A stretch of 64,000 nucleotides of DNA from a virus (IMGVR_UViG_3300033124_000732); one strand, 5' to 3'. Counted from the stretch's first letter, positions 7,789 to 51,955 are shown. Translations and numbers: made by a program. Notes: generated from the sequence alone by a model not told the origin.

Positions 7789-7793
7789 ATATT

Positions 7794-7867: not shown

Positions 7868-7873
7868 AAATTT

Positions 7874-7947: not shown

Positions 7948-7959
7948 ATTAAATACAGC

Positions 7960-12433: not shown

Positions 12434-12908
12434 TGTATCTCCTTGTGTAAAGATTACAGTATACTATAGAACTTGTTTTGTGTCAACTAAATTAGTTGCT
12501 CTGCATCCCCCGGCGGTAATTATACCATAGTTACTTGCGTACCCAAGGCTTCCACCCGCTTCCCGACAGGGACCGCTATCGTGTTGCTAACGGCCTTTCG
12601 GTAAGAAGACTACCACCCTTGAGAGTCACCTCACTTCTTATCCTGCGGGTCACAGTATCCGCTAACCAAGCGGAACGTTAGGGGAGAGCCACGGTTGCAG
12701 GACCTAGTGCTCCGAAGAGGAAGTATCCAGGCGATGTGGCTCTCAAACTTGGTGCACCTAACAGGAATCAAACCTGTCTGCGTTTAGCTTCAAATCCAAC
12801 TCGCAATGGCAATCCAGCGCATAAACTTGGCGGTCCCAGGGGGTAACGATCCCCCTCCTCAGCAGTGACAGTGCTGTGTGCGTCCATGAACACCTTGAGA
12901 CCAAAACA
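12434..12908. ncRNA. non-coding structured region with a tRNA-like 3' module (T-arm plus ACCA at 12750-12790)
   Basis: No ORFs. On the minus strand, ACAGG-TTTGATT-CCTGT followed by TAGGTGC-A-CCA, but no complementary 5' acceptor strand within 400 nt. Many GC-rich helices upstream. Confidence 0.3.
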
Positions 12909-12983
12909 TGGAAGAGCGTAGGGGAGTCGAACCCCTCTTCTCAGGATGAAAACCTGATGTCCTAACCGATAGACGAACGCTCC
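12909..12983 (-). tRNA. tRNA-Glu(UUC)
   Basis: Acceptor stem GGAGCGT/ACGCTCT. Anticodon stem TCAGG/CCTGA with loop TTTTCAT. T-loop GGTTCGACTCC. Encoded CCA. Confidence 0.8.
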
Positions 12984-14659: not shown

Positions 14660-15781
14660 TCAACTATTTTCGGTAAATTCTACAGGATTTTTAAAAGATT
14701 TAAACTGTTGTCCTGTAACTCTAGTGATATCAGCTAGTTCTTCTTCTAGTCGATGTTGGAATTCAGGTTGACAATATGGCTGATACTGATAATCTAATAA
14801 ATTTCTATAGCTGGTGCCCATGCGGTACAACAGGCGATTCTTTACATCGCCCAGTCTGCGATGCTGAGTGATTGAATTATCAAACAGCAACAAATCACCA
14901 TGTTGTGTTTTGTACCAATGATCGTACACATTATTTTCGGCAAACAGTTCAGTTTTGAGCTTGATCAACAATGCATCACTTTCCGGTTGGCTCATGCCCA
15001 CAAATCCTACCACTGTGTTTGGACTAAAATGCAAACCAGCAATTCCGCCGGGACTATTGATCCGCAACGGTAACTGATTGGGAGTTGGACAAAAGTTATG
15101 TTTGAACATGTGGTCTTGAACTAGATTCAATCCAGGATTGATTTTGCCTGGTTGGAATTCATGTTGGCAAACAAGCTCATCTAACTCACTGCGAAATGCT
15201 TCAGACTGATCTTGGTACCATCGAGCAGTGGTACTAAATCCGGTGCTACTGCCAATCACATGATCGATGGCCAACAAGCCCACGCCAGGAGTAAATGCTA
15301 GATGTCCAGATTCATTGCTGTGCCATAACAATTCTCCTTCAGCAAAAATTCCTAATCTACGACCTTGTTCATCTCGTTGTCCGCTAACTCGTTGAGCTTG
15401 TCCTGTACTAACTGGAGCACGAGTATAATCGCTTTCGGTAACAAATGACTGATCCTCAGGAGTTAGTGGATATACACCAGCCTTGAGATCTCTCCACATT
15501 TTATCAAATGCTTGATGTACTGGAAGATTGCTGTCCAGTTGTAGATTGTATTTTTTTAAAAATGTATAAGGACTAAGACTGTTACTTCTACCTAAAGCCA
15601 ACATCAATTCAGACCACCTATCTGGTGTAAGGTTGGTGCCTCTAAAAATTGTAACCAATGTGTCTAAGTGCAGTTTGCCATATACTGTTTGCCATTCTTC
15701 AATGCTGATATTTTCTAAATCAGCGCCGTCGACGAACACGCCGTAGTCACCTAAGCCGGGAATTTTTGTGATAGTTACCAT
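14660..15781 (-). CDS. TauD/TfdA-like Fe(II)/2-oxoglutarate dioxygenase (putative)
   Basis: 373 aa. The WHSNESGH...H pattern resembles the TauD-family HxD/E...H iron-binding site. Assignment from motif memory only. Confidence 0.45.
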   Translation of the reverse strand: MVTITKIPGLGDYGVFVDGADLENISIEEWQTVYGKLHLDTLVTIFRGTNLTPDRWSELMLALGRSNSLSPYTFLKKYNLQLDSNLPVHQAFDKMWRDLKAGVYPLTPEDQSFVTESDYTRAPVSTGQAQRVSGQRDEQGRRLGIFAEGELLWHSNESGHLAFTPGVGLLAIDHVIGSSTGFSTTARWYQDQSEAFRSELDELVCQHEFQPGKINPGLNLVQDHMFKHNFCPTPNQLPLRINSPGGIAGLHFSPNTVVGFVGMSQPESDALLIKLKTELFAENNVYDHWYKTQHGDLLLFDNSITQHRRLGDVKNRLLYRMGTSYRNLLDYQYQPYCQPEFQHRLEEELADITRVTGQQFKSFKNPVEFTENS

Positions 15782-16153
15782 ATGAGATACTTTTTAAGAT
15801 GTGGTAGCTTATTCTGTTACGAGGAAAGCTACCGAAACCCTAAGCAGTGTTTAGGCTGCTAATGCGAACTGTTCGTCGTTTGCGTTTACGTTTTTTGCTT
15901 CTACGGCCAGGAGACCCCAACCCTAACGGCTTCTGCTTTGCCGAGCTGTCCACTCTGTTACTCTTTGCCCTGTCGAAACTATGCAGGCCCATCAAAAACA
16001 TTTTGTAGTTAGAGCCGTTTTCATTCTAACCTTATGGTATTTGACGCATCTTTCGATGGTTACAAAATGTTTATGGTGGACCTGGGGGGATTCGCACCCC
16101 CGTCCAGAACACTTTTCTCTCGGCTTCATACAGCAATAACTTACAGTATATAT

Positions 16154-16342
16154 TTATTCTCGAGGTTTGTCAATAGCTTTGGAGATGATGTCATATACTT
16201 GGGAGTATGCATCTGTTATTTTGTCTAGCTGTTGTTCTGAAACCAAATCTGTATCTTCCAGACTAACCAAGTCCTGGGCCAGATTTTCCTGTAGTTTCTT
16301 TAGTTGATTAATCACATACCTATTTATAGAACAAACGGGCAA
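16154..16342 (-). CDS. possible small acidic protein (62 aa)
   Basis: ORF only. Its start lies inside the terminator hairpin at 16333-16353, so this is doubtful. Confidence 0.25.
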   Translation of the reverse strand: MPVCSINRYVINQLKKLQENLAQDLVSLEDTDLVSEQQLDKITDAYSQVYDIISKAIDKPRE

Positions 16343-16377: not shown

Positions 16378-17322
16378 TTAGGCGTTTTGAATCTTGCCAA
16401 CTAACCCAGCTGTAAAGGTATCTGCAAATTGCTCGTACACTTTGGCTGTTGCCTTGCGGAAAGTTTGCTCATCAGCGTCGCTAAATTTGATAACACGAAT
16501 GCCATCTTGTTCACAACGAGCTTTGGTTGGCTCAACTTCAGCCACAGCAACGGCACGTTCAAAACGACCAGCTTCTAATGCAGCTTCTTTCATGACTTCT
16601 TGCAGATTTTCAGGCAAGCTGGCCAAGAAGTTCTTGTTTACAATAATGTTGGTCAACAGCAAACGATGGTTGGGTTCTAAAATAGTTTCAGCAACTTCGT
16701 TTTGTTGGCAAGCATAGATACGTGGCCATGAGCTTTCGCCACCATCAATAGCACCATCTCGGATGCCTTCAGCCACACGCTCCACATCCATCACAACAGG
16801 ATCTGCGCCCAATGCACTCCATGTAGCAGCCGCCACTGGTGAATTTGACACACGAACTTTGACGCCAGCCATTTCGCTTAGGCTAGCAACTTCACGGTTC
16901 ATGGGCATGTTCATAAAGCCACCTGAGTATGTAAACGCCATACCTTTGATATTGCTGTTTTTGGTGTAGCCATCCAACAAGCTCTCGCCAATTTCACTTT
17001 CAAACACACGTGCCGCATGATTGTGATCACGGAACAAGAAAGGCAAATCAAGTGCGTCAAGGTCATTGTTGTACTTGCTGAGCACATAGGTATACATCTG
17101 ACTCATTTCAATGGCGCCTGAATCCATGATGTCCAACAGGTTGTGTTTGGTGATTGGTTCACCATGATTGTACTTGCTGGTGTACTCGCTCAGAGTCAGC
17201 ACTTCAATGTTGAATTGACCGGGTGCTCGGGCTTCTACTACCTCAGTAAATTTTTCAGCGGCACGAATAAAAATGTCGATAGGTTCATGGGCTAATACCC
17301 ATTTGATGTGGATAGGTTTCAT
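16378..17322 (-). CDS. TRAP-transporter DctP-family solute-binding protein homolog (no signal peptide)
   Basis: GVKVRVSNSPV...ALGADPVVMDVERVAEGIRDGAIDGGE matches the DctP consensus (LKIRV..SP...ALGA.PVPM...EVY.ALQ.GVVDG.EN). 314 aa. N-terminus is not hydrophobic. Confidence 0.6.
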   Translation of the reverse strand: MKPIHIKWVLAHEPIDIFIRAAEKFTEVVEARAPGQFNIEVLTLSEYTSKYNHGEPITKHNLLDIMDSGAIEMSQMYTYVLSKYNNDLDALDLPFLFRDHNHAARVFESEIGESLLDGYTKNSNIKGMAFTYSGGFMNMPMNREVASLSEMAGVKVRVSNSPVAAATWSALGADPVVMDVERVAEGIRDGAIDGGESSWPRIYACQQNEVAETILEPNHRLLLTNIIVNKNFLASLPENLQEVMKEAALEAGRFERAVAVAEVEPTKARCEQDGIRVIKFSDADEQTFRKATAKVYEQFADTFTAGLVGKIQNA

Positions 17323-17452
17323 AATATTTTTCCTTGAGTAATAGCTTGCATGTGTATGCTACGGTGGGCGTTCTAGGCATGTGCTAGTAAAGGGCATTGC
17401 CCAAGCGTCCAGTGTTTCCGACGTCAGCCCCTGCTGGCGTTGCTATTTTTAT

Positions 17453-18376
17453 TTAGCTTCCGCGGGCATCTTGTATTTGTTTGCTGTAGTGCTTTCTTAG
17501 TGTTTTTAAGGATTCTATGCGAGATCGGTAAAATTGCTGTGCGCTTACTCCGTCAAATACAGGACTCCGCATGTCGCTAAGGTGTTGTATTTCTTTTAAT
17601 CCCACGTCTTTTGTTGCTTGGTCAAGAATACGACCAATAGCCGCTTGTTTTTCTGCAGGCATTGACTGATGAGCCATTACAATGTTTATAACCCCGGGTA
17701 AATTTACCCCTTGTTCTTTTAAGGTAGCAACATTCATGTTATCATATCTTGTAGGGCAACTCATGCCCACCACTCTAATGTTGGGATTTTTTTCACGAAA
17801 TTGATCAATTATTGAATATCGTTCAATAGCAAAGTTTACCCCGTGATTACCTACCAAGTTTACCAGCGCATCGTAGTTGCTTTTAAATAATACTACTCGA
17901 ACTGGAACTCCAACCCGCTCGCCAATTGCCAACCCTGTTAAATGTGTGACGTTCCCTACGCCAACAGTTCCTACAGTAATTTCTTGGATGTTTTTTAAAC
18001 TGGAAATTCCCTGAGATTCGTTACCGCCTAATGTAATTACAGCCCAGCATGCTTCACCAATAGCATGAACTGGTTTCCAGTCATTTTCCTGTACTAGATT
18101 GTTTTCTACAAGCTCTACAAAAGCAGCGTTAATTATAGCCAATCGTTGTTCACTGTTCTCGCTTGCTGTCTTTAACGCAATTAGTCCTTGCGCTCCGGGT
18201 TTAAGATCAAATTGAAACCGATACTGAGATTGTGATTGGTTAGCTTTGTCGACTACTCGTTGGAAGGCTGCATTACCGCCATGACTAGCACTGTATGGTG
18301 TATACACCGTGACAGTTTCTTGCGAGTGCGCAAGGCTAGCACAGCACACTAGAATAGTAGTTAAGAGTTTTTTCAT
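17453..18376 (-). CDS. Bug/TctC-family periplasmic binding protein (1 of 3)
   Basis: Signal peptide MKKLLTTILVCCASLAHSQ. YTPYSASHGGN resembles the TctC PFxxGGxxD motif. About 307 aa. Start ATG at 18376, 2 nt after the upstream gene's stop. Confidence 0.65.
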   Translation of the reverse strand: MKKLLTTILVCCASLAHSQETVTVYTPYSASHGGNAAFQRVVDKANQSQSQYRFQFDLKPGAQGLIALKTASENSEQRLAIINAAFVELVENNLVQENDWKPVHAIGEACWAVITLGGNESQGISSLKNIQEITVGTVGVGNVTHLTGLAIGERVGVPVRVVLFKSNYDALVNLVGNHGVNFAIERYSIIDQFREKNPNIRVVGMSCPTRYDNMNVATLKEQGVNLPGVINIVMAHQSMPAEKQAAIGRILDQATKDVGLKEIQHLSDMRSPVFDGVSAQQFYRSRIESLKTLRKHYSKQIQDARGS

Positions 18377-18377
18377 G

Positions 18378-19562
18378 TTAAAATTTATAATGGTTGTTAA
18401 TACCTGAGCTTTCAAAGTCGGCTTCTCCCAGGTAATAAAAGGGCGATAAAAACCCCACAAAGCCGACTGGTTGTCCTATTTCTTTGTTAAAATATTTGTT
18501 GTCAATAGTTTTTACTAGATGTGCAAGGCCTGCTTGCCACTTGGCATACTGTGCAGTTTCTTTGAAGTTGGTGTAAAACCAATGATCCATCTCGTTGTAA
18601 AAGCTATTGGTTGGCTTGCTGGTTTGAAATGTTTCTTGATTGTACTGTGGATAGATCAAGGGTTTGATCAAGTGCTCGTATGTTGTGCGATGGGTGTAGC
18701 TGTAGTTTGGCCAACGGCACACATACTGCATGTGTTTGTTGTGCTCCAGCATAAACCAGTTCTTGACCATGTGGCATTGTTTAATAAACATTTCTGGCAA
18801 GTCAGGGGTCCAGTAAAAATATTCATTAGTCATGTTGGTGTAATCACCAAAATCGCCCATGCTATGGTTGGCCATAACATCGATAAAATAAGCGTACCAC
18901 TTTTTATCCTTGATGCATAGCTTGGGTTTGTCTACCCCGTATAAAATACAAATACGTTGACCAGTGTCTGCTAGTTTTTTGTGGCCTTCGTAACCAGTTG
19001 CTGAATGTTTGAATGCATGTCCAGGTTGGAAATAATCTTTAGTTTTCATGACCCAAGACTCGTCATACACTTGAGTTAGCATGTTTTCACTATAGTCGTG
19101 CGTGGTAATTTTTGTGCGCGGCGACGCAGTAGTTAACCAGTCCAGCACAGGATACGCTGCATACTTTGCTTCGCTTAGAGTGTTCTCAGGTTTACAGTTA
19201 AACGGATCATCGCTAACATTTTTTTCACCAGTCTTAGGATAACGAAACACAACTTCATCAAGGTGTATGCCGTTGTTGATAAAACTATACAATGCAGTAG
19301 TTGAATCTCCCCCGCCAGAAAATTCTAAACGAATATAATCGTACTTGTCTCGTAATTGTTGCGCACGAATTCGATACAGATCTAGGATATTGATATTGGG
19401 TTCAACCAACCAATTTTCAGCGCCAAATACTTCATTGTTGAAATTCCATTCGGGGAATTGATTAGTTTCAGTAGCCTTAGTCAGTGCCATTGGTTTACTG
19501 TAAAATTTTTCTTGTCCCACAGTGTAGTATCCTAATTTGGGATTTTGTTCAATTTTTATCAT
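18378..19562 (-). CDS. PP-loop ATP pyrophosphatase-family protein, paralog A (394 aa)
   Basis: SGGGDS PP-loop motif (LEFSGGGDSTTAL) preceded by YRIRAQQLRDKYDY. Paralogous to 19564..20712 and 24959..26119. Confidence 0.7.
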   Translation of the reverse strand: MIKIEQNPKLGYYTVGQEKFYSKPMALTKATETNQFPEWNFNNEVFGAENWLVEPNINILDLYRIRAQQLRDKYDYIRLEFSGGGDSTTALYSFINNGIHLDEVVFRYPKTGEKNVSDDPFNCKPENTLSEAKYAAYPVLDWLTTASPRTKITTHDYSENMLTQVYDESWVMKTKDYFQPGHAFKHSATGYEGHKKLADTGQRICILYGVDKPKLCIKDKKWYAYFIDVMANHSMGDFGDYTNMTNEYFYWTPDLPEMFIKQCHMVKNWFMLEHNKHMQYVCRWPNYSYTHRTTYEHLIKPLIYPQYNQETFQTSKPTNSFYNEMDHWFYTNFKETAQYAKWQAGLAHLVKTIDNKYFNKEIGQPVGFVGFLSPFYYLGEADFESSGINNHYKF

Positions 19563-19563
19563 G

Positions 19564-20712
19564 CTAGGTTCCTATATCATATGCACGACTGCTCAATACT
19601 TTAAATCCTTTTTTGATGTCTGCTGGATTTCTTTTTAAAAATACTGGAGTCTGATTCCACCGGTATTCTAATCCGGTCTGCCACGTGTGTTTGGCTATGT
19701 CATTGTCTGGTAACGAAAAGAACCAACTGTCTCTGTTACTAAAAATCAAGCTAGACGGCTTGAATTGATATGGTAGAGGCTTCCAGTTTGGATAGAGTGC
19801 AGTATGTATACCATTGGAGGTTACCCAGTAAATTTTGCCGTCGATAGACACTACAGGATTTCTATCATTGTAGATTGTCGACACAAACGGTGAATTAGGC
19901 CTAAGTTGTTTCATAAATTTTTTTAACACATGGGCTTGTTTAATGACCAATGTTGGCATGTCAGGAGTCCAATAAAACATTTCATCAAACAATCCAGGGA
20001 AGCCGTCAATTTGATTATGTGTTACTGTGGCGGCATCCAAAATGTCTCTGAACACCAAACTCCATTTTCCGTTGATACCTACTATCTTGGGTTTGTCAAT
20101 TCCGTGTATAAATCCCACTTTCTTGCCAGCGTTGATCATATCCATCCAGTGAGGTTGTGTTTTTACAACCAATGTTCTTGCATGGTAATTGGGATTCACG
20201 TATTGATTTACTTTATGTACCCAATCAAATTTATTTTGTTGGTTGGCAAAGTAGTCTATAGTGAGTTGACAAATATCAATCAGTGTGTGCCGAATCCATG
20301 GTTGAGATGTTTCTTGCAAATGTTGAATCTTGGGCACTGTGAGATTGAAAATTTCACCGTTGAGATAGTCGTTGGTGTCGCCAGTAGCAGCCACGTTAAT
20401 TAACCCAGCGGCTTCATCAAGTTTGATATTATTTTCTACAAATGTATTGAGAATATTGTCGCAATCCGAGCCTCCTGAATACCATAACACCAGATAATCA
20501 TAGGTATCTCTTAGCTGTTGAGCACGTTCACGGTACAGTTCAGACAGACTTTGTGTGGATGGTCGAGCCCAATCATAAGCACTGAATATTTCATCGTTGT
20601 AGTGCCAAGTTAGTGGTTGATTGATTTTTTCTGCAACCAATGCCGCGTCAAACTTGCTATAAAATTTTAAGTTACCAACGCGATAAAATCCAAACTTATC
20701 TTTATCTTGCAT
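19564..20712 (-). CDS. PP-loop ATP pyrophosphatase-family protein, paralog B (382 aa)
   Basis: LWYSGGSDCDNIL PP-loop and YRERAQQLRDTYDY. Shares motifs with paralog A (FYWTPD, GxDKPK). Confidence 0.7.
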   Translation of the reverse strand: MQDKDKFGFYRVGNLKFYSKFDAALVAEKINQPLTWHYNDEIFSAYDWARPSTQSLSELYRERAQQLRDTYDYLVLWYSGGSDCDNILNTFVENNIKLDEAAGLINVAATGDTNDYLNGEIFNLTVPKIQHLQETSQPWIRHTLIDICQLTIDYFANQQNKFDWVHKVNQYVNPNYHARTLVVKTQPHWMDMINAGKKVGFIHGIDKPKIVGINGKWSLVFRDILDAATVTHNQIDGFPGLFDEMFYWTPDMPTLVIKQAHVLKKFMKQLRPNSPFVSTIYNDRNPVVSIDGKIYWVTSNGIHTALYPNWKPLPYQFKPSSLIFSNRDSWFFSLPDNDIAKHTWQTGLEYRWNQTPVFLKRNPADIKKGFKVLSSRAYDIGT

Positions 20713-21643
20713 CTATGTTTGCTCGATTAAGTATCTTCTTGAACTTTCGAAACTCAATAGACAAAAAAGATCGTGGAATTTGTTTTCCAATACTCTGCAA
20801 GCCTGCGTCTTTCAATTGCTCTCGAACATCAGCTCGTTGCATTAATCGACGTAACGCTTCTCGAACTTGTGTGATTTCTACAGCAGGTGCTGAAGTATTA
20901 ACTACCAACACAAACCAATTGTAAAAATCATAATCGTTATTGCCAATGTCTGTCATACTGGGTAAGTTGGGAAAATCTGAATTACGCATGCGATCCACAC
21001 TTAGCAATGGTCGAAATAATTGAGTATCAATATAAGGTCGAACACTGGTTACAAAATCTGTAACTATATCAATGTGTCGACCTTGCAGATCAACAAGTGC
21101 TGGGCCTACGCCCTTGTATGGTACATGTGTGCTTGAACACTGCAAAGTTTCCATCACAATTGACGATGAAATGTGTGTGGCAGACCCAATGCCTGCGCTG
21201 CCGTATGCGATTGGTCTTCGGCGACATTCACGTTGAAGATCTTGAATGGTGTGTATACTGCTGGCAGCATTTACAACCAACAACATGGGAATGTGTCCAA
21301 GATATTCCAATGGAACAAAATCTGTTTCTAAATTGTAATTCACAGCTGATGCATTTACAATTGATGCAGTGACTACTGCATTTGGAGCCATGAGTATTTG
21401 TAATTTGTCAGACCGTGCTACCATAGATGCCGCAAGAGTACTGCCACCGCCGGGACGATAGCTCAACACAGGATTAAAATTATAATTGGCCAATTCTTCG
21501 CGCATGGGACCGATAAGGCTTACTGCAAGTCGGTCCGCAGTACCACCGGGTGCAAAAGGAACAACAAACTCAATGTTACGTTGAGCTTGTGCTACTGTAG
21601 CTAAAAAAACTAAAGCCAGAGCAAGTAATTTACTTTTGATCAT
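20702..21643 (-). CDS. Bug/TctC-family periplasmic binding protein (2 of 3)
   Basis: VVPFAPGGTADRLAR, YGSAGIGSATHIS and VPYKGVGPALVDLQGRHID match TctC/Bug signatures. Signal peptide MIKSKLLALALVFLATVAQAQ from the ATG at 21643; the ORF-track first codon at 21670 is TTG. Confidence 0.8.
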   Translation of the reverse strand: MIKSKLLALALVFLATVAQAQRNIEFVVPFAPGGTADRLAVSLIGPMREELANYNFNPVLSYRPGGGSTLAASMVARSDKLQILMAPNAVVTASIVNASAVNYNLETDFVPLEYLGHIPMLLVVNAASSIHTIQDLQRECRRRPIAYGSAGIGSATHISSSIVMETLQCSSTHVPYKGVGPALVDLQGRHIDIVTDFVTSVRPYIDTQLFRPLLSVDRMRNSDFPNLPSMTDIGNNDYDFYNWFVLVVNTSAPAVEITQVREALRRLMQRADVREQLKDAGLQSIGKQIPRSFLSIEFRKFKKILNRANIDAR

Positions 21644-21676
21644 AGTACTCTGGTTTGTTGTTGTTTTCAAATTGAA

Positions 21677-23308
21677 TCATGCTATTCCTGCACTGTGATA
21701 TCCGCGATGTATTGTACGTGAATCATCTAAGAATTCTTGCCAACGATCAGCGTATTTGACGCTTAACGCATGATTGGAAAACACTTCTCTAAGAATTTGG
21801 TTGACCACGCGAGGCGATACAGAACCACTATTATACAAGTTCAACAGTAGTTGTGTAAAGTATTTTTTTTCCCAAAGTGGTGGAATACTTTTGTTAAACT
21901 CATCAAACTCTTCCAAAGTTACTCCAAACCATGATAGCATTTTGTAAGTAATTTGAGTGAAGTTAAAATACGCTATGTCCAGCTCGTTAAAACTAAAACT
22001 ACCACTGATCATGCTGTGCTTGTTATTTTTGATTTCTCGTGTGCGTATTTGAAATTTTTTCATATACTCGGGATCATACACCGCTGGCGAATTGGGTATG
22101 ATGATCCAGGTGTAAAACTCCAGGCACAAATTCAATTGGTATGCCTCACGCAACAAATGCTGCCAAGTTTTGCGTGTTTGTCCAGGTAGACCTTTGATTC
22201 CTTCTAACGAAAATGTTCGATCAGGAAACCGTGACTTCAAATGGCGGATGTATGTTTTGTGTTCTTCCCAAGAAATATCTGGACGGTCTATGTTGGCCAG
22301 GATTGTGGGATCTATGTCTTGTACTGCAAATTTGCCACCTTCGCACACTCCTGCGTCTATCCAAATTTCTAAAATTTCGTATGCTCGGTCTTTTTTGTTT
22401 TTGCTGAGGTTGGGGCTTTGTGTTTTGATTCCACGTGGCGGCAAAATTTCAGCCATGAGCCGAGCAATTTCTACATCCACTGGCCATTGTCCAAAGTTGG
22501 CATCACTAATGTGTAGTTGTGTAATGCCTAACTCAGCAATCATTTCCAGTTCCGCTCTGTAATCTACCTTGCGTTTGACTGTGGTTGGCCCAAGCCCCGA
22601 AGTCCAGTCACAGAAACTGCAACTGTAGGGACACCCTCTTGAAGTTTCGTAACTGAGCTCAAACTCATATCCATGATATTCTGGATCACCTACCATTTGT
22701 TTTAGTAGATGTTGACTTTCTAAATATGGACTATACTCGGTATTTTTGATGTAGGCTGCTGGAGCCTTTTGCAGTTGATCGTTTTTGACCCACAGCAAGT
22801 TATGAGTGTTTAGAATATTTAAACTTCTGTCATAAAAATGATGACACAATATGTCGTGGAATGCTTGCTCGCCATCAGAGAACACAGCGTAGTCTGCATC
22901 TTCGTAGTCTTGTCTCCAGTCATACGTGCCATGTGCTTCAATACTAGGGCCGCCCACAATCACAATCACATCATGATTGATTTGACTTTTGAGATTGCGT
23001 GTGAGATTGATAATTGTTGGCCGGTTCCAGTTGTAAACACTAAAACATATCACATTGCACTTGTGTTGATTCACATAGTCCACAACTTGTTGTTGTGTCC
23101 AGGTGTTTACACTGATCTTGTTCCAGGTCAGATCTTCGTACAGTGTGGGATTTTTTATTTTAATGTAACTATCAAGATAGCACGGAACAGTACTGAGATA
23201 CACGCTATAGTCATATTCAAATTCTTGGTCCAATAAATTTGTTTCAGCACGATATCTTGCACCGTGAACTACACTTGGACAACTGAAGAATATTTGAATC
23301 TTTGACAT
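21677..23308 (-). CDS. radical SAM enzyme with N-terminal cobalamin-binding-like domain (543 aa)
   Basis: CxxxCxxC in ETSRGCPYSCSFCDW. N-terminal Rossmann-like B12-binding region (VIVIVGGPSIEAHG). Confidence 0.75.
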   Translation of the reverse strand: MSKIQIFFSCPSVVHGARYRAETNLLDQEFEYDYSVYLSTVPCYLDSYIKIKNPTLYEDLTWNKISVNTWTQQQVVDYVNQHKCNVICFSVYNWNRPTIINLTRNLKSQINHDVIVIVGGPSIEAHGTYDWRQDYEDADYAVFSDGEQAFHDILCHHFYDRSLNILNTHNLLWVKNDQLQKAPAAYIKNTEYSPYLESQHLLKQMVGDPEYHGYEFELSYETSRGCPYSCSFCDWTSGLGPTTVKRKVDYRAELEMIAELGITQLHISDANFGQWPVDVEIARLMAEILPPRGIKTQSPNLSKNKKDRAYEILEIWIDAGVCEGGKFAVQDIDPTILANIDRPDISWEEHKTYIRHLKSRFPDRTFSLEGIKGLPGQTRKTWQHLLREAYQLNLCLEFYTWIIIPNSPAVYDPEYMKKFQIRTREIKNNKHSMISGSFSFNELDIAYFNFTQITYKMLSWFGVTLEEFDEFNKSIPPLWEKKYFTQLLLNLYNSGSVSPRVVNQILREVFSNHALSVKYADRWQEFLDDSRTIHRGYHSAGIA

Positions 23309-24268
23309 TTATTTTGGTAACAGATGCTGATATTTTTTATACAGTCGTTCTCGACTGTCATAGTATGTGTTGTAAAACTGTCTAGCTCGAACTAAGTCAC
23401 CGCCTAATGGCACATTGCCGCGACGCACTAAAGAGGCAGCAGTGTCTGAATCAACAACTGCTTGGTGCCATGCCCAGTTGAGATATTCAAGTACATGAAC
23501 AGGTGTGCCACGAGGCGCAAACAAGCCATTGTAATTTACAGTAACAACTCCATTGTAGATTTCTGCTAATGCAGGAATGTTAGGATGTTGTGCAGAGCGT
23601 GTGCGACTGCCTACTGCTAGTACTTTGACCTTTTTAGCGTCTATCAATCCTTGTGCATCTCCAATGGCTGATAACACAAATGCTGTTTCGTTAGCAGCCA
23701 CTGATCGTAAAGTCTCTGCTTGACTTTTGTACGCCACTGGTTGAATATCTTGCACCCGCGCAGTTTCTAAGAACGCCTCAGTCATCAGTGTTTGAATGCC
23801 GCCCACTGTGGCGTAACTCAATCGTTTTTGTTGTTGAAGATACGCAACAAACTCTTGCACAGTACTAGCTGGTGTGTCTGCACCAACAATCAACGCAAGG
23901 CTGCTTTCTATGCTGGCCGACACTGGTACTAATTGATCTCTTGATGGTGCATTTGGTAACCCTTGAATGGCGTTCACCATGGCTGGACCAGTTTCAAATT
24001 GCCCTAGGGTCAGCCCATTGGGTTCTGATTGCGTCAACGCCTGAGTACCAATGGTGCCACTGGCACCTGGACGATTGGATACTATGATGTTTACCCCAGT
24101 GATTTGTTCCACAGTCTTGGCCAATTGCCTTGCGGTAATATCGCTGTTGCCTCCAGGGCCGTACGGCACAATAACAGTGATGGTCTTGCCTGTCAGTTCA
24201 GCAGGAATGTCTCGTGCGTGTGTGGTCACGCACAGTGATAATAGCAGTAGTGTTAGTAGTTTCTTCAT
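23309..24268 (-). CDS. Bug/TctC-family periplasmic binding protein (3 of 3)
   Basis: Signal peptide MKKLLTLLLLSLCVTTHA. IVPYGPGGNSDITAR motif. 319 aa. Confidence 0.75.
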   Translation of the reverse strand: MKKLLTLLLLSLCVTTHARDIPAELTGKTITVIVPYGPGGNSDITARQLAKTVEQITGVNIIVSNRPGASGTIGTQALTQSEPNGLTLGQFETGPAMVNAIQGLPNAPSRDQLVPVSASIESSLALIVGADTPASTVQEFVAYLQQQKRLSYATVGGIQTLMTEAFLETARVQDIQPVAYKSQAETLRSVAANETAFVLSAIGDAQGLIDAKKVKVLAVGSRTRSAQHPNIPALAEIYNGVVTVNYNGLFAPRGTPVHVLEYLNWAWHQAVVDSDTAASLVRRGNVPLGGDLVRARQFYNTYYDSRERLYKKYQHLLPK

Positions 24269-24269
24269 A

Positions 24270-24965
24270 TTAATATTTCAATTCAAATTGTCCACCAGCT
24301 GAGAACCAGCGGTGCCAGCGATCAGTGGTCATTCCACTCAAACGCAATAATGGTCTGGACCAGTAGCCGTTGTTAAACGTACCATGCACTTCCGTGGGCC
24401 AATTCCAAGCATATACATCACCACGCCGCCAATTGTCCAGCAAGCCGTGTTCAGTTGTAAAGCCTTGGCCAATGCGCCAATCTTCCAGCATGATCAACAC
24501 TCTTGTGGCTGTTTGAGGATCTTGCGCAAATCGCTGTCGATCTTCATCAGTAATTGCAGCCTGATAATAGTGTTCAATCTCGCTGACTTCTCCCAGGTAA
24601 CTGGTAGACAGATCATCTCTGTGTGGCATGACCATTTGTCCTGAGCGTTGCACTTGTACTCTGCCCAGTGTCAGTTTTAATCCAAGGCGTTCTCCAATGC
24701 GTTCAACCACACTGTGATCAGTTATGGCCCACTTCTCAAAGTCCAGTACATCTGCTCCAAATACATCTGTGTCTGTGTTGGTATAGCCATACTTGGCAGC
24801 CATGTCGGCAGCGCATTTGCTACGTACACGAACCCGTAATGCATGAGATGCAGGTGCTTGTTTCACTGTGTGTACATTTTCTGGCTTGGTTCGTAATTCT
24901 GACCATTTGAGATAATCGGGAATGCCAGAAATGTTACCGACGCAACGAAAGGTATTATTTACCAT
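24270..24965 (-). CDS. hypothetical protein, possible cupin/2OG-oxygenase-like (231 aa)
   Basis: MPHRDD...H pattern suggests an HxD...H metal site. Low-confidence call. Confidence 0.4.
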   Translation of the reverse strand: MVNNTFRCVGNISGIPDYLKWSELRTKPENVHTVKQAPASHALRVRVRSKCAADMAAKYGYTNTDTDVFGADVLDFEKWAITDHSVVERIGERLGLKLTLGRVQVQRSGQMVMPHRDDLSTSYLGEVSEIEHYYQAAITDEDRQRFAQDPQTATRVLIMLEDWRIGQGFTTEHGLLDNWRRGDVYAWNWPTEVHGTFNNGYWSRPLLRLSGMTTDRWHRWFSAGGQFELKY

Positions 24966-26119
24966 GGTATGGTTCCTATTGGGTGGAAATTGTCAAAGAC
25001 AGTCATATCACTTTTTACTGATTTCTTGTCATTGAATGCGATTGCAGGATCTAATTGGCGTATTGTATTTATTGCACATGACGCCCAACTTTGATAAAAT
25101 CGTTCTTTCTGGAACTGTTGGGTAAGTTTGTCAAAGTGATTGTTGGCAAAAATACCGCTTTTGTCTACTTGTATTTTGTTAAAGTCCCAGTGTGGGTAGC
25201 AAATTTTCTTTATGGTATGGTCAAACCATTTTTTGCGTTGTTGCCATTCTGCGCCTTTAAGATCCAGCATGGCTTGTGTGCCTGTGGGATCTAACAGTAG
25301 ACTATCCCAAACCAAGTGTGCTTGTTCAGTTACGATAGCAGGAAAGTCTGGTGTCCAGTAGAAGTATTCAATGTTGCGATATTCGTTGCCTTGTGCGTGT
25401 GTTTTAAAAATAGCCGCATTGTCAACAAATCGAAATCCGTACTGATTACCACGTCGAGCTGGATTGACTTTGTCCATGCCGGTGATCACAGCAACTCTTT
25501 GTCCGCGATCCACAAACTGTTGTAGATATCGTGTGATGTATCTGTAGCGTTTGATTGACGTGTATACTGTGGGCACAGAAATAACAGTCATGCTATCTTC
25601 AGCATCTTCTTCTGTTTGCCCAGCAAAGGTATCGCTTACGTGTACATGTATTTCGGGATTGGTAACTGCTAGTTCGTCTAATGCAGGTTTGATCACACGG
25701 AACCATTCTACAGGCATGTTCTCTGGATTGGTTGCATCACTGATTACATAGTTGCTTTTTTCAACAAGGCTAAGTGGCCAGTCACACCACACTTCATCCA
25801 AGTGTATTTTGTTTTGTTGAAAAACTTTTAAGATGTTGTCACTGTCAGCACCGCCACTATATCCTAAAATTAAGTAATCGTATCGGTCGCGAAGTTGCAA
25901 AGCACGTTGTTTGTACAATTCCATCAGTGGAATGCCTAGTCTAGGCATCTGTGCTTGTTGAGCAAACACTGCATGATTGAAATCCCAAGACACATGTTGA
26001 TGTGTACAACTGGCTTCTAGCAAGGCGTTGAGTTTTTTGTCAAATAGTTTTGTTCCTACTTGATAATAGCCTTGTTTGCTGTGTGCCGGATCAAGACTGC
26101 TGTCTTCAAACCTCGTCAT
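24959..26119 (-). CDS. PP-loop ATP pyrophosphatase-family protein, paralog C (386 aa)
   Basis: LGYSGGADSDNIL PP-loop and YKQRALQLRDRYDY. Shares FYWTPDFP and other blocks with paralogs A and B. Confidence 0.7.
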   Translation of the reverse strand: MTRFEDSSLDPAHSKQGYYQVGTKLFDKKLNALLEASCTHQHVSWDFNHAVFAQQAQMPRLGIPLMELYKQRALQLRDRYDYLILGYSGGADSDNILKVFQQNKIHLDEVWCDWPLSLVEKSNYVISDATNPENMPVEWFRVIKPALDELAVTNPEIHVHVSDTFAGQTEEDAEDSMTVISVPTVYTSIKRYRYITRYLQQFVDRGQRVAVITGMDKVNPARRGNQYGFRFVDNAAIFKTHAQGNEYRNIEYFYWTPDFPAIVTEQAHLVWDSLLLDPTGTQAMLDLKGAEWQQRKKWFDHTIKKICYPHWDFNKIQVDKSGIFANNHFDKLTQQFQKERFYQSWASCAINTIRQLDPAIAFNDKKSVKSDMTVFDNFHPIGTIPW

Positions 26120-26633
26120 TATCTACAGGGATCCACCCCAATTTAAAAAAGTCTTCGCGTATTTCTTCTGTGACTGTACCTTCGGGCACATAGCCTTTAG
26201 CACCATCGGCATCACCATTGCCCAATCCATCACCTATGCCCGAACAGTACCAATTGATGTAGTCACCCTCCTCACGCATGTCAGCCACAATGCCGCCGGC
26301 ATATCGCCAACTGCAACTGTAGGTCTCACCCTTCAACAATGGCCATACTTCGTTCTTTTGCCAGTCTTGATTGCACAAGGCAGCGTAGATGTTTTGAGCG
26401 TAGGTGTCACTGGCCTTGGCTTTGTTGCAAATCCACTCAGTACTGCGCAAATCGTATTCAAGATTGTTTTCTCGCCACTTTTCGTCGGCCTCACGTTGAG
26501 CATTGTGTTCGTTGATCATGCGTTCAAGATCTAAAGCTCGTTGAACATCTTCATCAGGGTTGCCTCCTTCCGCAATGACATCTTCAATTCTGCATTGGCT
26601 GTGAAAGGTTCCGCGGGCAGGACTTTTGTTCAT
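26106..26633 (-). CDS. hypothetical acidic protein (175 aa)
   Basis: ORF with ATG at 26631-26633. No motif recognised. Confidence 0.45.
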   Translation of the reverse strand: MNKSPARGTFHSQCRIEDVIAEGGNPDEDVQRALDLERMINEHNAQREADEKWRENNLEYDLRSTEWICNKAKASDTYAQNIYAALCNQDWQKNEVWPLLKGETYSCSWRYAGGIVADMREEGDYINWYCSGIGDGLGNGDADGAKGYVPEGTVTEEIREDFFKLGWIPVDNDEV

Positions 26634-26639: not shown

Positions 26640-26725
26640 TGGTACCAGAGACGGGTATCGAACCCGTATGCCCTTTCAAGCGGCAGATTTTAAGTCTGCT
26701 GTGTATACCATTCCACCACTCTGGC
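26640..26725 (-). tRNA. tRNA-Leu(UAA), type II
   Basis: 86 nt. Anticodon stem GCAGA/TCTGC with loop CTTAAAA. Long variable arm. Encoded CCA. Confidence 0.85.
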
Positions 26726-26743
26726 TTTGTGTTATTTACTGCA

Positions 26744-26818
26744 TGGTCCGGCCGCCAGGAATCGAACCTGGATTGATTGCTTAGAAGGCAACTGTATTAT
26801 CCATTATACTACGGCCAG
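26744..26818 (-). tRNA. tRNA-Arg(UCU)
   Basis: Anticodon stem TTGC/GCAA with loop CTTCTAA. T-loop GGTTCGATTCC. Encoded CCA. Confidence 0.8.
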
Positions 26819-26822
26819 TGTT

Positions 26823-26897
26823 TGGTGGGCCAACTTGGAATTGAACCAAGACTCGACCGATTATGAGTCGGTTGCTTTACCATTAAGCTATTGGCCC
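26823..26897 (-). tRNA. tRNA-Met/Ile2(CAU), third CAU tRNA
   Basis: Anticodon stem ACCGA/TCGGT with loop CTCATAA. T-loop GGTTCAATTCC. Encoded CCA. Confidence 0.8.
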
Positions 26898-26920
26898 TGT
26901 GCTACATTGTAGCAGGAAAA

Positions 26921-27301
26921 CTATTTAGTGTCAACTGTGCCGTCGGCCAAGTGGTCGTGTTTAATTTCCTTTACTGGATGCCCCAAAATAGTGGCAATGG
27001 AATTTTTGTAAGCAATGCGTTTGTTGTTGTGATCTCTAATGGCAATGGCACGCCGGCCAATTTCTTGTAGACTCAACATCTGTTCCACGCCTGATTTAAG
27101 TTGCCATTCCAAATCCCAGATAGCATGATGGATATCGGTCATGGCTTGAATGTCTGAATCCAGTTCGGGACTTTGTGGTAGTTGTTGAAACTTGTCCTCG
27201 TACCAATCAAGTTCAACTTGGTTGGCACCTTTGGTTCGTGCATGTTTTACTCTGGCAATGCAGAGTCTGTCAATTAGTTCTAATACTGGAAGAAATTCCA
27301 T
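26921..27301 (-). CDS. hypothetical protein (126 aa)
   Basis: ORF with AAGGG RBS. A TATAAT box (TTGTATAAT on the minus strand) sits 25-35 nt upstream of the ATG. Confidence 0.5.
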   Translation of the reverse strand: MEFLPVLELIDRLCIARVKHARTKGANQVELDWYEDKFQQLPQSPELDSDIQAMTDIHHAIWDLEWQLKSGVEQMLSLQEIGRRAIAIRDHNNKRIAYKNSIATILGHPVKEIKHDHLADGTVDTK

Positions 27302-28139: not shown

Positions 28140-28312
28140 CTACGACTCCAAGCAATGTACCCACCGTTAGTGTCACTCCATGGGCAGTATCGTTCCCAAA
28201 GTGCTTGACTTGAGTCGGGATTTTCTTTCATCAAACGATCTAGGTCGGGACGAGTTTTATACCCATCCAGACTCCAGTCGTGATTTTTTAGTGCAGTTTC
28301 AAGATCGATCAT
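28136..28312 (-). CDS. small protein (58 aa)
   Basis: ATG 28310-28312 overlaps the SPFH gene's stop. Its stop 28136-28138 overlaps the next gene's ATG. Confidence 0.3.
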   Translation of the reverse strand: MIDLETALKNHDWSLDGYKTRPDLDRLMKENPDSSQALWERYCPWSDTNGGYIAWSRR

Positions 28313-50729: not shown

Positions 50730-51125
50730 TTATGCAGGTTGTTGATAGCCTGTTGTTTTGTAGTTGGCTTGTCCGTGAATAACTCCACGTACCCCACCCA
50801 CAGGATCTGCACAATCGCCCACACGTCGTGGAATCAAATGCACATGCGGATACATTACAGTTTGCCCTGCTTCTCGCCCCATGTTGATGCCAATGTTGAA
50901 CGCATCACACTTGCCATCAGCTACCATACGCCGACCATGCAACATGGCTGATTCAAAACATTCCATGATTACATCATCAGTATTGTATTGTGGCACAAAC
51001 AACAAATGTCCTGAAGTTACTGGAAAGCGATCACGGAACGCAGCTACATGAAAGTCCGAAAGTTCTTCCACACGGTCGTCCCAGGGTGCAATGCCTTGTT
51101 GACGTGCAATTTCTAAATCAGTCAT
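50730..51125 (-). CDS. HIT-family (histidine triad) protein
   Basis: HVHLIP histidine-triad motif. 131 aa. Confidence 0.7.
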   Translation of the reverse strand: MTDLEIARQQGIAPWDDRVEELSDFHVAAFRDRFPVTSGHLLFVPQYNTDDVIMECFESAMLHGRRMVADGKCDAFNIGINMGREAGQTVMYPHVHLIPRRVGDCADPVGGVRGVIHGQANYKTTGYQQPA

Positions 51126-51955
51126 TTAACTCCTTTTAATACGTTGATTACATCTTGTTTGTTACCAAACTGGTGTGGTTGAGAATTTGGTACATGTGTA
51201 TACCAAAAGTCTAACATGCGAAACAGTCGTGTACTACTAGAAATCACTTGTTCTACCCAGGCAATTTTAGGCCTTGGCGACACATTATAAAATCTTAGTT
51301 TATTATACTGCTCATTTATTGCTGAATCAAACATTTTGATATATGCCAATGCTAATTCGGCAGTATACATAAAAAATCCTGTAGGGTGTTGACCGGATCT
51401 AAACACATCTAACGCAAAGTCCACAATGTTACAATAAAAGTGATCTTGATCTTGATCTTGATTGATATCACCCACACCATTTACATAGTATCCGCCAAGA
51501 GCTTGAATTTCGTCAGCTAGATATAAATTAGCTACAATACCAGTTTGGTGAGTGTTTCTTAACACTAACAAATACTTTTTAACAATGTCCTCATACTCAG
51601 AAATAGTTACTGTTTTAATTAACGGAGTTACGTTGTGTTGTTGGCACCAATATTCAGCATACCAAGACTCTGCGGCATTGAGATTGCTAACTTGAAGGAT
51701 CACTGGTGTAAATGAAATATGGTTTCTAACAAAAGTGTTGGCAATCAATTCACTGTCGAGTCCGCCACTAAGGCTGAGATATAGTGGCCGGTTGCTCCAC
51801 TCCTGGCATAGCATTTGTGCAGCAATGTCACATGCTGATTGAAAATCCAATTCTTCAGTAGCAGGATTGTTAACTCGAAATGAAAACTGTTCAGGTGTAA
51901 GATTTACACTGCACCAGCCATTATGGCCAGCTGGATGCCATGTGTTAACGCTCAT
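51122..51955 (-). CDS. PP-loop ATP pyrophosphatase-family protein (277 aa)
   Basis: LSLSGGLDSELIA (SGGxDS). No C-terminal Cys cluster, so not a canonical QueC. Confidence 0.6.
   Translation of the reverse strand: MSVNTWHPAGHNGWCSVNLTPEQFSFRVNNPATEELDFQSACDIAAQMLCQEWSNRPLYLSLSGGLDSELIANTFVRNHISFTPVILQVSNLNAAESWYAEYWCQQHNVTPLIKTVTISEYEDIVKKYLLVLRNTHQTGIVANLYLADEIQALGGYYVNGVGDINQDQDQDHFYCNIVDFALDVFRSGQHPTGFFMYTAELALAYIKMFDSAINEQYNKLRFYNVSPRPKIAWVEQVISSSTRLFRMLDFWYTHVPNSQPHQFGNKQDVINVLKGVK

Follow-up and report, generated by a model that had tools for sequence, protein, structure and literature searches.

Bug/TctC proteins of the tripartite tricarboxylate (TTT) family include BugD, BugE, Bug27, TphC and AdpC; in Bug structures, two conserved loops, PxxxGGxxD and GxxGxGxxxH, hold the carboxylate of the ligand. 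Cellular bug genes often neighbour genes whose products, cytoplasmic enzymes, use the ligand taken up. Pathways of the clavam, carbapenem and thienamycin type are made up of beta-lactam synthetase (BLS) with CAS, and of carbapenam synthetase CarA with CarC and ThnK/L/P. Phages also carry uptake genes, as with pstS in cyanophages. The permease gene tctA has been reported on SUP05 viral contigs, its role being stated as unknown (PMC4164917).

We analysed a 64,000-nucleotide stretch of viral DNA (IMGVR_UViG_3300033124_000732; hereafter the window), which comes from a giant freshwater-type phage and encodes TctC-type binding proteins together with members of an enzyme family that we call X. As with cyanophage pstS and SUP05 viral tctA, both auxiliary metabolic genes, the phage would contribute a periplasmic or membrane component to the uptake machinery of its host; here, however, that component is a TTT-family binding protein, present as several paralogs per genome and locked to a dedicated cytoplasmic enzyme. 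Two of the binding proteins, TctC-a and TctC-b, are clear Bug/TctC members with signal peptides. The phage proteins differ from the described ones in being phage-encoded, usually without tctA or tctB, in their systematic partnership with one enzyme family and, in the subtype TctC-c, in the loss of the first canonical loop motif. X shares with the synthetase domain of AsnB, with BLS, CarA and TsnB9 an alpha/beta fold of the PP-loop type, with SGGxDS following the first strand, and its chemistry is predicted to be alike (carboxylate adenylation, then amide formation). Unlike these relatives, X has no N-terminal Ntn glutaminase domain but a conserved stretch of ~60-80 aa before the PP-loop fold, is ~385 rather than ~500-550 aa long, and is known only from phage contigs. 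The operon also bears a general resemblance to clavam and carbapenem logic, in that an AsnB-like synthetase, a 2-oxoglutarate (2OG) oxygenase and a B12 radical SAM enzyme stand in one operon, although no beta-lactam precursor pathway is evident and the oxygenase is prolyl-hydroxylase-like, not CAS/CarC-like. X is a previously undescribed family of putative ATP-using enzymes, paired in phages with secreted binding proteins.

Layout of the locus

The features of the locus, in transcribed order and followed by one gene outside the operon, are:

26906..26934, minus strand: candidate sigma-70-like promoter (TTGACA, 17-nt spacer, TACAAT, TG extension), a consensus match only (11/12)
26640..26897, minus strand: tRNA-Met(cat), tRNA-Arg(tct) and tRNA-Leu(taa), immediately preceding p175 and X1
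26106..26633, minus strand: p175, 175 aa, first gene of the packed block, overlapping X1 by 14 nt
24959..26119, minus strand: X1, predicted AsnB-like PP-loop ATP pyrophosphatase (SGGADS) without glutaminase domain or signal peptide
24270..24965, minus strand: Fe(II)/2-oxoglutarate oxygenase, 231 aa, with invariant H115-x-D117...H194...R204
23309..24268, minus strand: TctC-a, secreted TTT-family solute-binding protein with signal peptide MKKLLTLLLLSLCVTTHA (Pfam TctC, E = 2.9e-38, 132.4 bits)
21677..23308, minus strand: cobalamin-dependent (class B) radical SAM enzyme (B12-binding, 4.4e-11; Radical_SAM, 4.6e-10; CPYSCSFC)
20702..21670, minus strand: TctC-b, canonical secreted TTT solute-binding protein (Pfam TctC, E = 1.6e-33, 116.9 bits)
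19564..20712, minus strand: X2, paralog of X1 (SGGSDC), sharing 11 nt with the end of TctC-b
18378..19562, minus strand: X3, paralog of X1 (SGGGDS), separated by 1 nt each from X2 and TctC-c
17453..18376, minus strand: TctC-c, divergent secreted TctC-family protein with its true ATG at 18376 (6e-39 to the phage TctC HMM)
17419..17442, strand unassigned: 10-bp G+C-rich hairpin just past the TctC-c stop, where the transcription unit may end
16378..17322, minus strand: DctP-family (TRAP) solute-binding protein without signal peptide (PF03480, E = 2.2e-55)
51122..51955, minus strand: fourth, distant PP-loop relative outside the operon, 277 aa, of the PPl2 type (PPl2 HMM, 1.2e-12; X HMM, 2.1e-5), with no Pfam match

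Nine minus-strand genes (26633-17453) are packed with overlaps or gaps of no more than 6 nt, the spacing from X1 to TctC-c being -7, +1, 0, +6, -11, +1 and +1 nt. The original prediction had placed the operon genes at the correct coordinates and had rightly described them as tightly packed. Its span of 17453-26119 contains genes that are indeed present, but the unit reaches further, to p175 upstream and to the DctP-family gene, 130 nt downstream of the operon. A strict alternation of Bug and PP-loop genes, also proposed, is contradicted by the transcribed order, which is p175, X1, 2OG oxygenase, TctC-a, B12 radical SAM enzyme, TctC-b, X2, X3, TctC-c.

The promoter candidate lies upstream of both the tRNA trio and the operon, and the tRNA-Met/Arg(tct) lead-in was found again in related loci. 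Homologues of p175, which has no match in Pfam or NCBIfam, occur in 13 of 83 related loci, a sample that was centred on X and includes near-duplicate contigs. The hairpin past TctC-c was scored as a plus-strand terminator, and its minus strand has no T-run. A Porin_4 gene lies 3 kb downstream in the window, which also has an Rfam beta_tmRNA match above threshold; these support a betaproteobacterial host at class level only, so that the Bordetella/Burkholderiales-type host suggested earlier stands for the class and not for Bordetella or Burkholderiales specifically.

Binding proteins, X enzymes and their neighbours

Full-length matches link TctC-a and TctC-b to TTT binding proteins of solved structure (TphC, Bug27 and BugD), at E values of 1e-25 to 1e-30. 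TctC-c scores only 14.2 bits against Pfam TctC (PF03401; gathering cut-off, 27 bits) and so fails the threshold by itself; it is placed in the family because of its match to the phage TctC HMM and because many of its 143 relatives carry PF03401. Thus, two of the three Bug/TctC proteins originally called are firm and the third is sub-threshold in Pfam. The motifs PFAPGGxxD and YGSAGIGS, ascribed to all three, are found as quoted in TctC-b (PFAPGGTAD, YGSAGIGSATH and also VPYKG), the real start of which is probably the ATG at 21643, but not in the others. TctC-a retains the first motif (PYGPGGNSD), but its second is shortened; in TctC-c it is the first that is degenerate (PYSASHGGN), with the second preserved (VGTVGVGNVTH). 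TctC-b is therefore the only one of the three with both canonical loop motifs, and degenerate ligand-loop motifs occur in several phage TctC subtypes.

By a Kyte-Doolittle hydrophobicity heuristic, used here instead of SignalP, a signal-peptide-like N-terminus was present in all three TctC proteins of the window, as had been predicted, and in 77/77 tested phage TctC proteins, versus only 2/121 X proteins. Neither TctA nor TctB, nor any open reading frame with at least four TM-like segments, was found in the window. The expected rarity of phage-borne binding proteins was confirmed for TctC, with one doubtful match among 50,697 phage records. The DctP-family protein retains the context of the carboxylate-binding Arg (VKVRV); its open reading frame begins at the mature domain, and a hydrophobic N-terminus was seen in 0 of 20 phage homologues.

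X1, X2 and X3 are mutual paralogs of ~385 aa with 27-29% identity and an invariant SGGxD loop. This agrees with the three PP-loop paralogs of the original prediction, the PP-loop assignment being made by structure only. Profile and sequence libraries were silent (no match for X1-X3 in Pfam, NCBIfam, PHROG, PADLOC or PDB sequences, and none to the Asn_synthase profile in any of 52 diverse members at E up to 1), and it was a structure model that placed the proteins. The model is confident (pLDDT 93) and its best fold matches are asparagine synthetase B and beta-lactam synthetase, with CarA also among the top matches; on this ground the X proteins are modelled as PP-loop adenylating enzymes of the AsnB kind that lack a glutaminase domain. 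The fold aligns with AsnB-type enzymes over 267 residues, versus ~156 for TilS. It comprises a Rossmann-like alpha/beta/alpha nucleotide-binding fold within a synthetase-domain architecture that includes the C-terminal helical part, and the SGGxDS loop sits between strand 82-86 and helix 91-102. Across the 52 members, S88, G89, G90 and D92 are invariant, as are the acidic and basic residues E138, E251 and K320, and S93 is at least 90% conserved. No class II glutamine amidotransferase (GATase) match was found in X1-X3, which have only ~85 residues before the PP-loop. The putative reaction converts ATP to AMP and PPi by way of an adenylated substrate; not every PP-loop enzyme acts on carboxylates.

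Two further enzymes had been proposed within the operon, and both assignments hold. The 2OG-oxygenase-like protein has the double-stranded beta-helix fold, the HxD/E...H triad and the 2OG-binding Arg/Lys of that class. The radical SAM enzyme carries a CxxxCxxC motif and exceeds the cut-offs for PF02310 (43.1 versus 32.1 bits) and PF04055 (40.4 versus 29.5 bits). Its closest curated model is a KedN5-type C-methyltransferase, but at 105.7 bits it falls far under that model's cut-off of 700 and so receives no equivalog-level assignment.

Recurrence of the TctC-X pairing

The X family comprises ~1,800 clusters at 50% identity and is present in 390 viral contigs, with none found in cultured phages or isolate genomes. 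In the 83 related loci, 60 of 79 TctC genes were immediate neighbours of an X gene; 57 of these pairs shared a strand and 46 overlapped or abutted. Adjacency was present in 17 of 20 X subclades, and 61 of 126 X genes had a TctC or DctP gene at <100 bp. Paralog types of X and TctC co-vary between genomes (163/226 comparisons concordant, versus 106 expected by chance). The combination of Bug and PP-loop genes is thus not unique to this genome but recurs across uncultured phages and X subclades. The proposed order of a PP-loop gene after each Bug gene holds only loosely, since the position relative to the partner varies (downstream in 31 cases, upstream in 29).

The minimal conserved unit is TctC plus X, and one such pair stands isolated in a 115-kb phage contig (L096), outside any island. 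Larger arrangements also occur. A 362-kb contig (L001) repeats the cassette of X, oxygenase, TctC and B12 radical SAM enzyme, its X being 52% identical to X1; homologues of the window oxygenase (O231) are found in 6 loci and close radical SAM homologues in 3-4. TctA or TctB is encoded in only 1 of the 83 loci, L044, in which a methyltransferase, TctA (Pfam, 2.7e-94), TctC and two X genes form one packed operon, and in L011 a sodium:solute symporter gene lies beside X and TctC. In about a quarter of loci, X has no binding-protein gene within 8 kb, and one X subclade adjoins a second PP-loop gene, small ~100-aa proteins (c5) and a P450 instead. Related islands carry genes for P450, SPASM and B12 radical SAM enzymes, GNAT and TauD, and the accessory island holds many auxiliary genes of unrelated kinds (AhpC, CMD, desaturase-like proteins, P450, tRNAs and tmRNA).

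A proposed carboxylate capture model and its alternatives

The same pairing in many uncultured phages suggests that these phages probably import a carboxylic acid and trap it chemically. We propose a module that captures and commits one or more carboxylates, a model to which we give about an even chance of being right. In its main points this supports the dedicated ligand-handling module of the original prediction. Each TctC-type protein would be exported by its Sec signal peptide, bind a carboxylate in the periplasm and pass it to a TTT permease. This would normally be a putative host TctAB, because the window encodes neither subunit and related loci almost never do; the one related phage with TctA would bring its own. 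In the cytoplasm, the partner X would spend ATP to form an acyl-adenylate of the imported carboxylate and resolve it with ammonia or with an amine, possibly an internal one, to give an amide, which would make uptake irreversible and reserve the compound for the phage. Being non-identical, the three pairs may handle different substrates, and the 2OG oxygenase and B12 radical SAM enzyme beside X1 and TctC-a may hydroxylate and methylate the substrate or product of that pair. In favour of the model we count the invariant X residues, the full-length matches of TctC-a and TctC-b to carboxylate-binding TTT proteins, the contrast in N-termini between TctC and X, the conserved synteny with its co-varying paralog types, the isolated pair in L096, the transporter genes beside X and TctC in L044 and L011, the repeated cassette in L001 and the porin gene of the window. 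Weighing against it are the deviation of TctC-a and TctC-c in one canonical ligand-loop motif each, the loci in which X stands without a nearby binding-protein gene, the lack of TctA and TctB in the window and in nearly all related loci, and the DctP-type proteins without signal peptides.

The operon might instead be a small-molecule biosynthetic cassette, with X as a lactam or amide synthetase of the BLS/CarA kind, the oxygenase and B12 radical SAM methylase as tailoring enzymes, and the binding protein supplying a precursor or recovering the product. The fold matches to BLS and CarA point this way, as do the cassette conserved in L001, the tailoring-type genes of related islands and the fact that an internal amine is a natural nucleophile for an X without a glutaminase domain. 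We nevertheless consider this reading unlikely: few X genes are accompanied by the oxygenase and radical SAM genes, the minimal unit is merely TctC plus X, no precursor-forming enzyme of crotonase or ThDP type was seen, and the X fold is no closer to BLS than to AsnB. It is less likely still that secreted TctC feeds no transporter but sequesters a periplasmic metabolite, signals through a host sensor or blocks superinfection, X having a separate cytoplasmic role. Sensor kinases can receive signals from TTT binding proteins (as with BctC/BctE in Bordetella), and the lack of TctA and TctB in the window and the degenerate loops of several phage subtypes fit such a role, but the TctA-TctC-X-X operon of L044 argues for transport, and tight pairing in most subclades is difficult to explain without a shared ligand.

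Three further readings appear very improbable. X could have tRNA or some other nucleic acid as its substrate, like TilS, ThiI or QueC, its linkage to TctC being incidental to a shared accessory island: three tRNA genes precede the operon, including one with a CAU anticodon, several related loci have tRNA-Met(cat)/Arg(tct) immediately before p175 or X, and many loci sit inside tRNA/tmRNA arrays. Yet the AsnB-type alignment is longer than that to TilS, no RNA-binding domain was found, ~24 of 60 scanned loci have no tRNA, adjacency to TctC is far more regular, and genomes hold multiple paralogs, each with its own TctC. That X and TctC are mere neighbours in a hypervariable region, without functional coupling, would suit an island full of unrelated auxiliary genes, but this idea is already disfavoured by the counts of adjacent, co-oriented and abutting pairs, the stand-alone pair in L096, the co-variation of paralog types and the near absence of TctC from phages otherwise. 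We give equally little credence to X as a peptide- or protein-modifying enzyme, such as a lasso-peptide cyclase or another amide-forming RiPP enzyme, that targets the binding protein or a small neighbouring protein. Lasso cyclases are AsnB homologues, and one X subclade adjoins SPASM radical SAM genes and c5 proteins; however, these neighbours are missing from the window operon, neither a leader-peptidase (B protein) gene nor an RRE-like one was found, lasso cyclases are ~550-600 aa long, and the exported binding proteins and the cytoplasmic X occupy different compartments.

The capture model could be extended, in a form that we regard as speculative and rather improbable, to phage-only X and phage-only binding proteins that have co-evolved into private metabolic channels. 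TctC would retarget the host TTT permease and the ligase would make an amide or lactam, which the four-gene cassette would hydroxylate and methylate into a phage-made specialised metabolite by clavam/carbapenem-like logic. Signal-peptide-less DctP-type proteins, which a pure uptake model does not account for, might in this extension serve as cytoplasmic ligand carriers.

Gene order and protein families of the block

All genes considered here lie on the minus strand of the window according to our ORF calls. Because the gaps between successive genes range only from -14 to +6 nt (-14, -7, +1, 0, +6, -11, +1 and +1 nt), the nine genes from p175 to TctC-c make up one packed block. They are listed below in order of transcription, with the neighbouring features; X1, X2 and X3 are the three PP-loop paralogues, and TctC-a, TctC-b and TctC-c are the three Bug/TctC (TTT-family) solute-binding proteins.

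Genes and sites of the block and its flanks
26934-26906: near-consensus promoter-like site, upstream of the tRNA trio
26640-26897, minus: three tRNA genes, directly upstream of the block
26106-26633, minus: p175, function not assigned
24959-26119, minus: X1, 386 aa
24270-24965, minus: oxygenase, 231 aa
23309-24268, minus: TctC-a
21677-23308, minus: B12 radical SAM enzyme, 543 aa
20702-21670, minus: TctC-b
19564-20712, minus: X2
18378-19562, minus: X3
17453-18376, minus: TctC-c (ATG at 18376)
16378-17322, minus: DctP-family gene

A G+C-rich hairpin lies 3' of the TctC-c stop codon, with the DctP-family gene beyond a 130-nt gap. ORF calls and profile matches in the window bore out the coordinates and gene families of the original prediction, but not the strict alternation of Bug and PP-loop genes that it proposed: the only directly adjoining pairs are TctC-b/X2 and X3/TctC-c, with the oxygenase gene standing between X1 and TctC-a. 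Two long antisense ORFs, at 18519-18920 (+) within X3 and 19930-20403 (+) within X2, have apparent homologues elsewhere that form an ORF cluster (c16); they are shadow ORFs of conserved X genes, not genes.

TctC-a and TctC-b score 132 and 117 bits, respectively, with the Pfam TctC model (cut-off of 27) and align over their full length to the solved TTT proteins TphC, Bug27 and BugD (E values of 1e-25 to 1e-30). Of the canonical loop motifs, TctC-b has both (PFAPGGTAD and YGSAGIGSATH), and TctC-a the first plus a shortened second. TctC-c falls under the Pfam threshold and its first loop motif is degenerate; it is nonetheless recognized by a phage TctC family HMM (6e-39) and has 143 database relatives, many annotated as TctC/PF03401 and some on contigs of 330-350 kb. 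All three proteins start with a typical signal peptide. Across the related loci described below, a hydrophobicity test assigned a signal-like N terminus to all 77 phage TctC proteins but to only 2 of 121 X proteins; the 20 DctP-like proteins all lack one.

X1, X2 and X3 are 27-29% identical to one another and had no significant match in Pfam, PHROGs, NCBIfam, PADLOC or PDB sequences, including when profiles of 3 and 52 sequences were used; the sole traces in sequence searches were to QueC (E values of 0.008-1.5). Twelve residues are invariant in the 52-sequence alignment (S88, G89, G90, D92, Y69, R72, Q75, R77, E138, E251, Q317 and K320). A confident AlphaFold model (pLDDT 93.3, pTM 0.92) predicts a PP-loop ATP pyrophosphatase; its closest structural relatives are enzymes that form amides after adenylating carboxylates. 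X lacks the glutaminase domain found in those relatives, and a profile test of 52 members showed that the family does not belong to Asn_synthase at the sequence level. X is predicted to work like an AsnB-type synthetase, yet it should not be filed as one. A second, shorter PP-loop family (PPl2, approximately 280-310 aa), with a weak QueC match and distant kinship to X, has a member in the window at 51122-51955 (-) and occurs in 20 related loci; in other phages, its gene often immediately precedes X.

In the 543-aa protein, a B12-binding domain is combined with a radical SAM domain and a CxxxCxxC motif; the best curated match is a KedN5-type C-methyltransferase model, far under the family cut-off. 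The 231-aa oxygenase has just 11 database relatives, among which H115-x-D117, H194 and R204 are invariant. Elsewhere in the window, another radical SAM enzyme with a B12-binding domain (657 aa) is encoded at 47448-49421 (-), and there are two further radical SAM genes at 38671-39696 and 59924-60916 (-), giving at least four phage radical SAM proteins within 64 kb. The last of these has a Pfam SPASM domain; the product of 38671-39696 has a Radical_SAM domain only and matches a SPASM-type cluster HMM from related loci.

TctC-X pairs across uncultured phages

ORFs called in 83 related loci were assigned to families using HMMs that we derived from the window proteins. The sample was picked through X, includes near-duplicates and was called mechanically; it contained 126 X genes, with TctC in 57 loci and DctP in 20. 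Of the X genes, 61 were less than 100 bp from a binding-protein gene. Conversely, 60 of 79 TctC genes directly adjoined X, with 57 of these 60 on the same strand and 46 overlapping or abutting; most of the remaining TctC genes were separated from X by a single gene, at a distance of 0.7-1.3 kb, as for X1 and TctC-a. The order of X and TctC goes both ways (31 versus 29), and their adjacency is present in 17 of 20 X subclades. Labelling each gene by the best-matching window paralogue gave no clean one-to-one map, and a between-genome concordance test was used instead; by this test, X type and partner TctC type co-vary between multi-pair genomes (163 of 226 concordant, compared with 106 expected). 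The pairing of X with TctC is recurrent among uncultured phages and not a one-genome curiosity.

The pair also occurs in varied settings. A 115-kb phage contig (L096) carries a solitary pair among unrelated neighbours, and in a T4-like contig (L003) the pair adjoins neck and tail genes. On a 362-kb contig (L001), the cassette of X, oxygenase, TctC and B12 radical SAM enzyme recurs, with an X protein 52% identical to X1 and a TauD-family enzyme as the oxygenase. Approximately one-quarter of loci have no binding-protein gene near X, and one X subclade adjoins a second PP-loop gene, small proteins of approximately 100 aa and a P450.

Several other enzyme genes accompany these islands. A fatty-acid-desaturase-like membrane protein with His boxes is present in 2-3 copies per island (49 ORFs in 22 loci, including L018-L024, L027, L028, L032, L036, L061 and L072-L079), together with cytochrome P450, GNAT and a cluster of approximately 100-aa ORFs (c5) flanking the P450. 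A pair of AhpC/TSA peroxiredoxin and carboxymuconolactone-decarboxylase-family genes, at 1108-2219 (-) in the window, recurs near X islands elsewhere.

Database searches show X to be a large viral family. We found 306 close clusters in a 90%-identity database, 1,808 clusters at 50% identity (E values up to 1e-3) and relatives on 390 IMG/VR viral contigs; close fold matches in BFVD were only to uncharacterized proteins of uncultured Caudovirales. No homologue turned up in 50,697 GenBank phage records, searched at both the DNA and the protein level. Among 185,579 species-representative genomes there were only 11 matches, all of them on MAG contigs that belong to freshwater-type bins; no isolate genome had one.

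Nutrient-uptake auxiliary genes of phages are known chiefly from phosphate-binding proteins of cyanophages (pstS). In bacteria, a binding protein and an enzyme for the imported ligand in one operon is a familiar arrangement; the parts and logic here are likewise familiar, but they come with an undescribed, phage-restricted PP-loop family. The TctC-X pattern is both widespread and unexpected in phages: an enzyme family of approximately 1,800 clusters at 50% identity, nameless in domain libraries and almost exclusively on viral contigs, is partnered with secreted proteins that bind solutes for a transporter family almost unknown in phages. Our literature search for phage TctC, TTT auxiliary genes and phage asparagine-synthetase-like modules found only a single listing of tctA, on SUP05 viral contigs, where it is a putative auxiliary gene without a known role (PMC4164917), and no report of phage TctC proteins, the X family or their pairing.

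Proposed roles of TctC and X

No ORF in the window has four or more TM-like segments, and the window therefore lacks TctA and TctB. One related locus (L044, 3876-9143) encodes a methyltransferase, TctA (Pfam, 2.7e-94), TctC, X and X in a single packed operon, the only phage-encoded TctA among the 83 loci. A 169-aa ORF upstream of this tctA was considered as TctB and rejected, being methyltransferase-like. In another locus (L011, 3-3620), a sodium:solute symporter gene precedes X and TctC. The window itself has a Gram-negative porin gene (Porin_4, 3.5e-23) at 13704-14585 (-), 3 kb downstream of the operon; beside it, at 14660-15781 (-), is a TauD-family dioxygenase gene (PHROG 'taurine catabolism dioxygenase', 2.9e-81). 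Collectively, the signal peptides, TctA operon, symporter and porin support a probable role in transport for TctC and in the cytoplasm for X.

With folds, motifs, localization signals and synteny as observed, we infer the chemistry of X, its substrates and the use of host TctAB, and give roughly even chances to the following model. Secreted TctC would bind a carboxylate and load it onto a TTT permease, which in most cases would belong to the host. X would then adenylate the imported carboxylate and form an amide, trapping the compound in the cell and committing it to phage use; as X has no glutaminase domain, the nucleophile would be free ammonia, an amine or an internal amine. Separate TctC-X pairs would handle separate ligands, and for X1/TctC-a the oxygenase and B12 radical SAM enzyme may modify the same compound. 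Under this uptake model, the ligand of each binding protein would indicate what the partner enzyme acts on, making the function of the family directly testable. The answer would reveal the dissolved organic acids whose uptake by the host is driven by large freshwater phages, and would bear on how carbon and nitrogen move during infection.

Three observations are harder to reconcile with the uptake model: the loci without a binding protein, the P450-side X subclade and the signal-less DctP-like proteins. The DctP-like ORF of the window cannot be extended upstream and aligns to solved TRAP binding proteins from their mature N terminus, with the conserved Arg context kept; a pure uptake model does not account for a cytoplasmic solute-binding protein. 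DctP-family proteins in the 20 related loci often adjoin TctC-X pairs and also keep the carboxylate-binding Arg context.

Of the other explanations, the one we weigh most, while still thinking it unlikely, is that X is a lactam or amide synthetase in a biosynthetic pathway, with the oxygenase and B12 radical SAM enzyme tailoring its product as in clavam and carbapenem pathways. This is attractive for the four-gene cassette but leaves the far commoner bare TctC-X pair unexplained. Somewhat less probable still is a role other than transport for the secreted TctC proteins, an idea weakened by the TctA operon. That tRNA genes lie just upstream of the operon, in the window and in several related loci, could suggest that X acts on tRNA, but such activity fits poorly with the fold ranking and the regular pairing with TctC, and we think it very improbable. 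Chance co-location of X and TctC and modification of peptides by X are disfavoured to a similar, strong degree, and anti-phage defence, DNA hypermodification, lasso/RiPP synthesis and tRNA modification were all ranked low.

Genome context and probable host

The window is part of a jumbo myovirus genome. With the DNA polymerases of Sinorhizobium phage Phosso, Agrobacterium phage Atu_ph07, Salicola phage SCTP-2 and the GAP32 group, the polymerase encoded here shares 42-51% identity. A tmRNA gene at 15783-16187 (-), between the DctP-like and TauD genes, scores 108.8 bits with the Rfam beta_tmRNA model (gathering score of 84), also matches the permuted tmRNA model and encodes the tag ANDEQFALAA. 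Permuted tmRNA genes with similar tags are present in at least ten related loci. A Bordetella/Burkholderiales-type host had been proposed from the Bug family; the beta_tmRNA, Porin_4 and TctC genes support a probable betaproteobacterial host at the level of class only, and neither Bordetella nor Burkholderiales is established. X-bearing contigs have also been placed in bins of several other phyla.

There are 30 tRNA genes in the window (2286-9076, 12828-12983 and 26640-26897 (-)), three of which have a CAU anticodon; another is a 92-nt tRNA-Ile(tat). Genes for tRNA-Met(cat)/Arg(tct) immediately precede p175 or X in the window and in L006, L008, L056, L063, L069 and L075. Upstream of the operon, at 28309-29103 (-), is a gene for an SPFH/Band_7 protein with a lipoprotein-type signal (LATGC).
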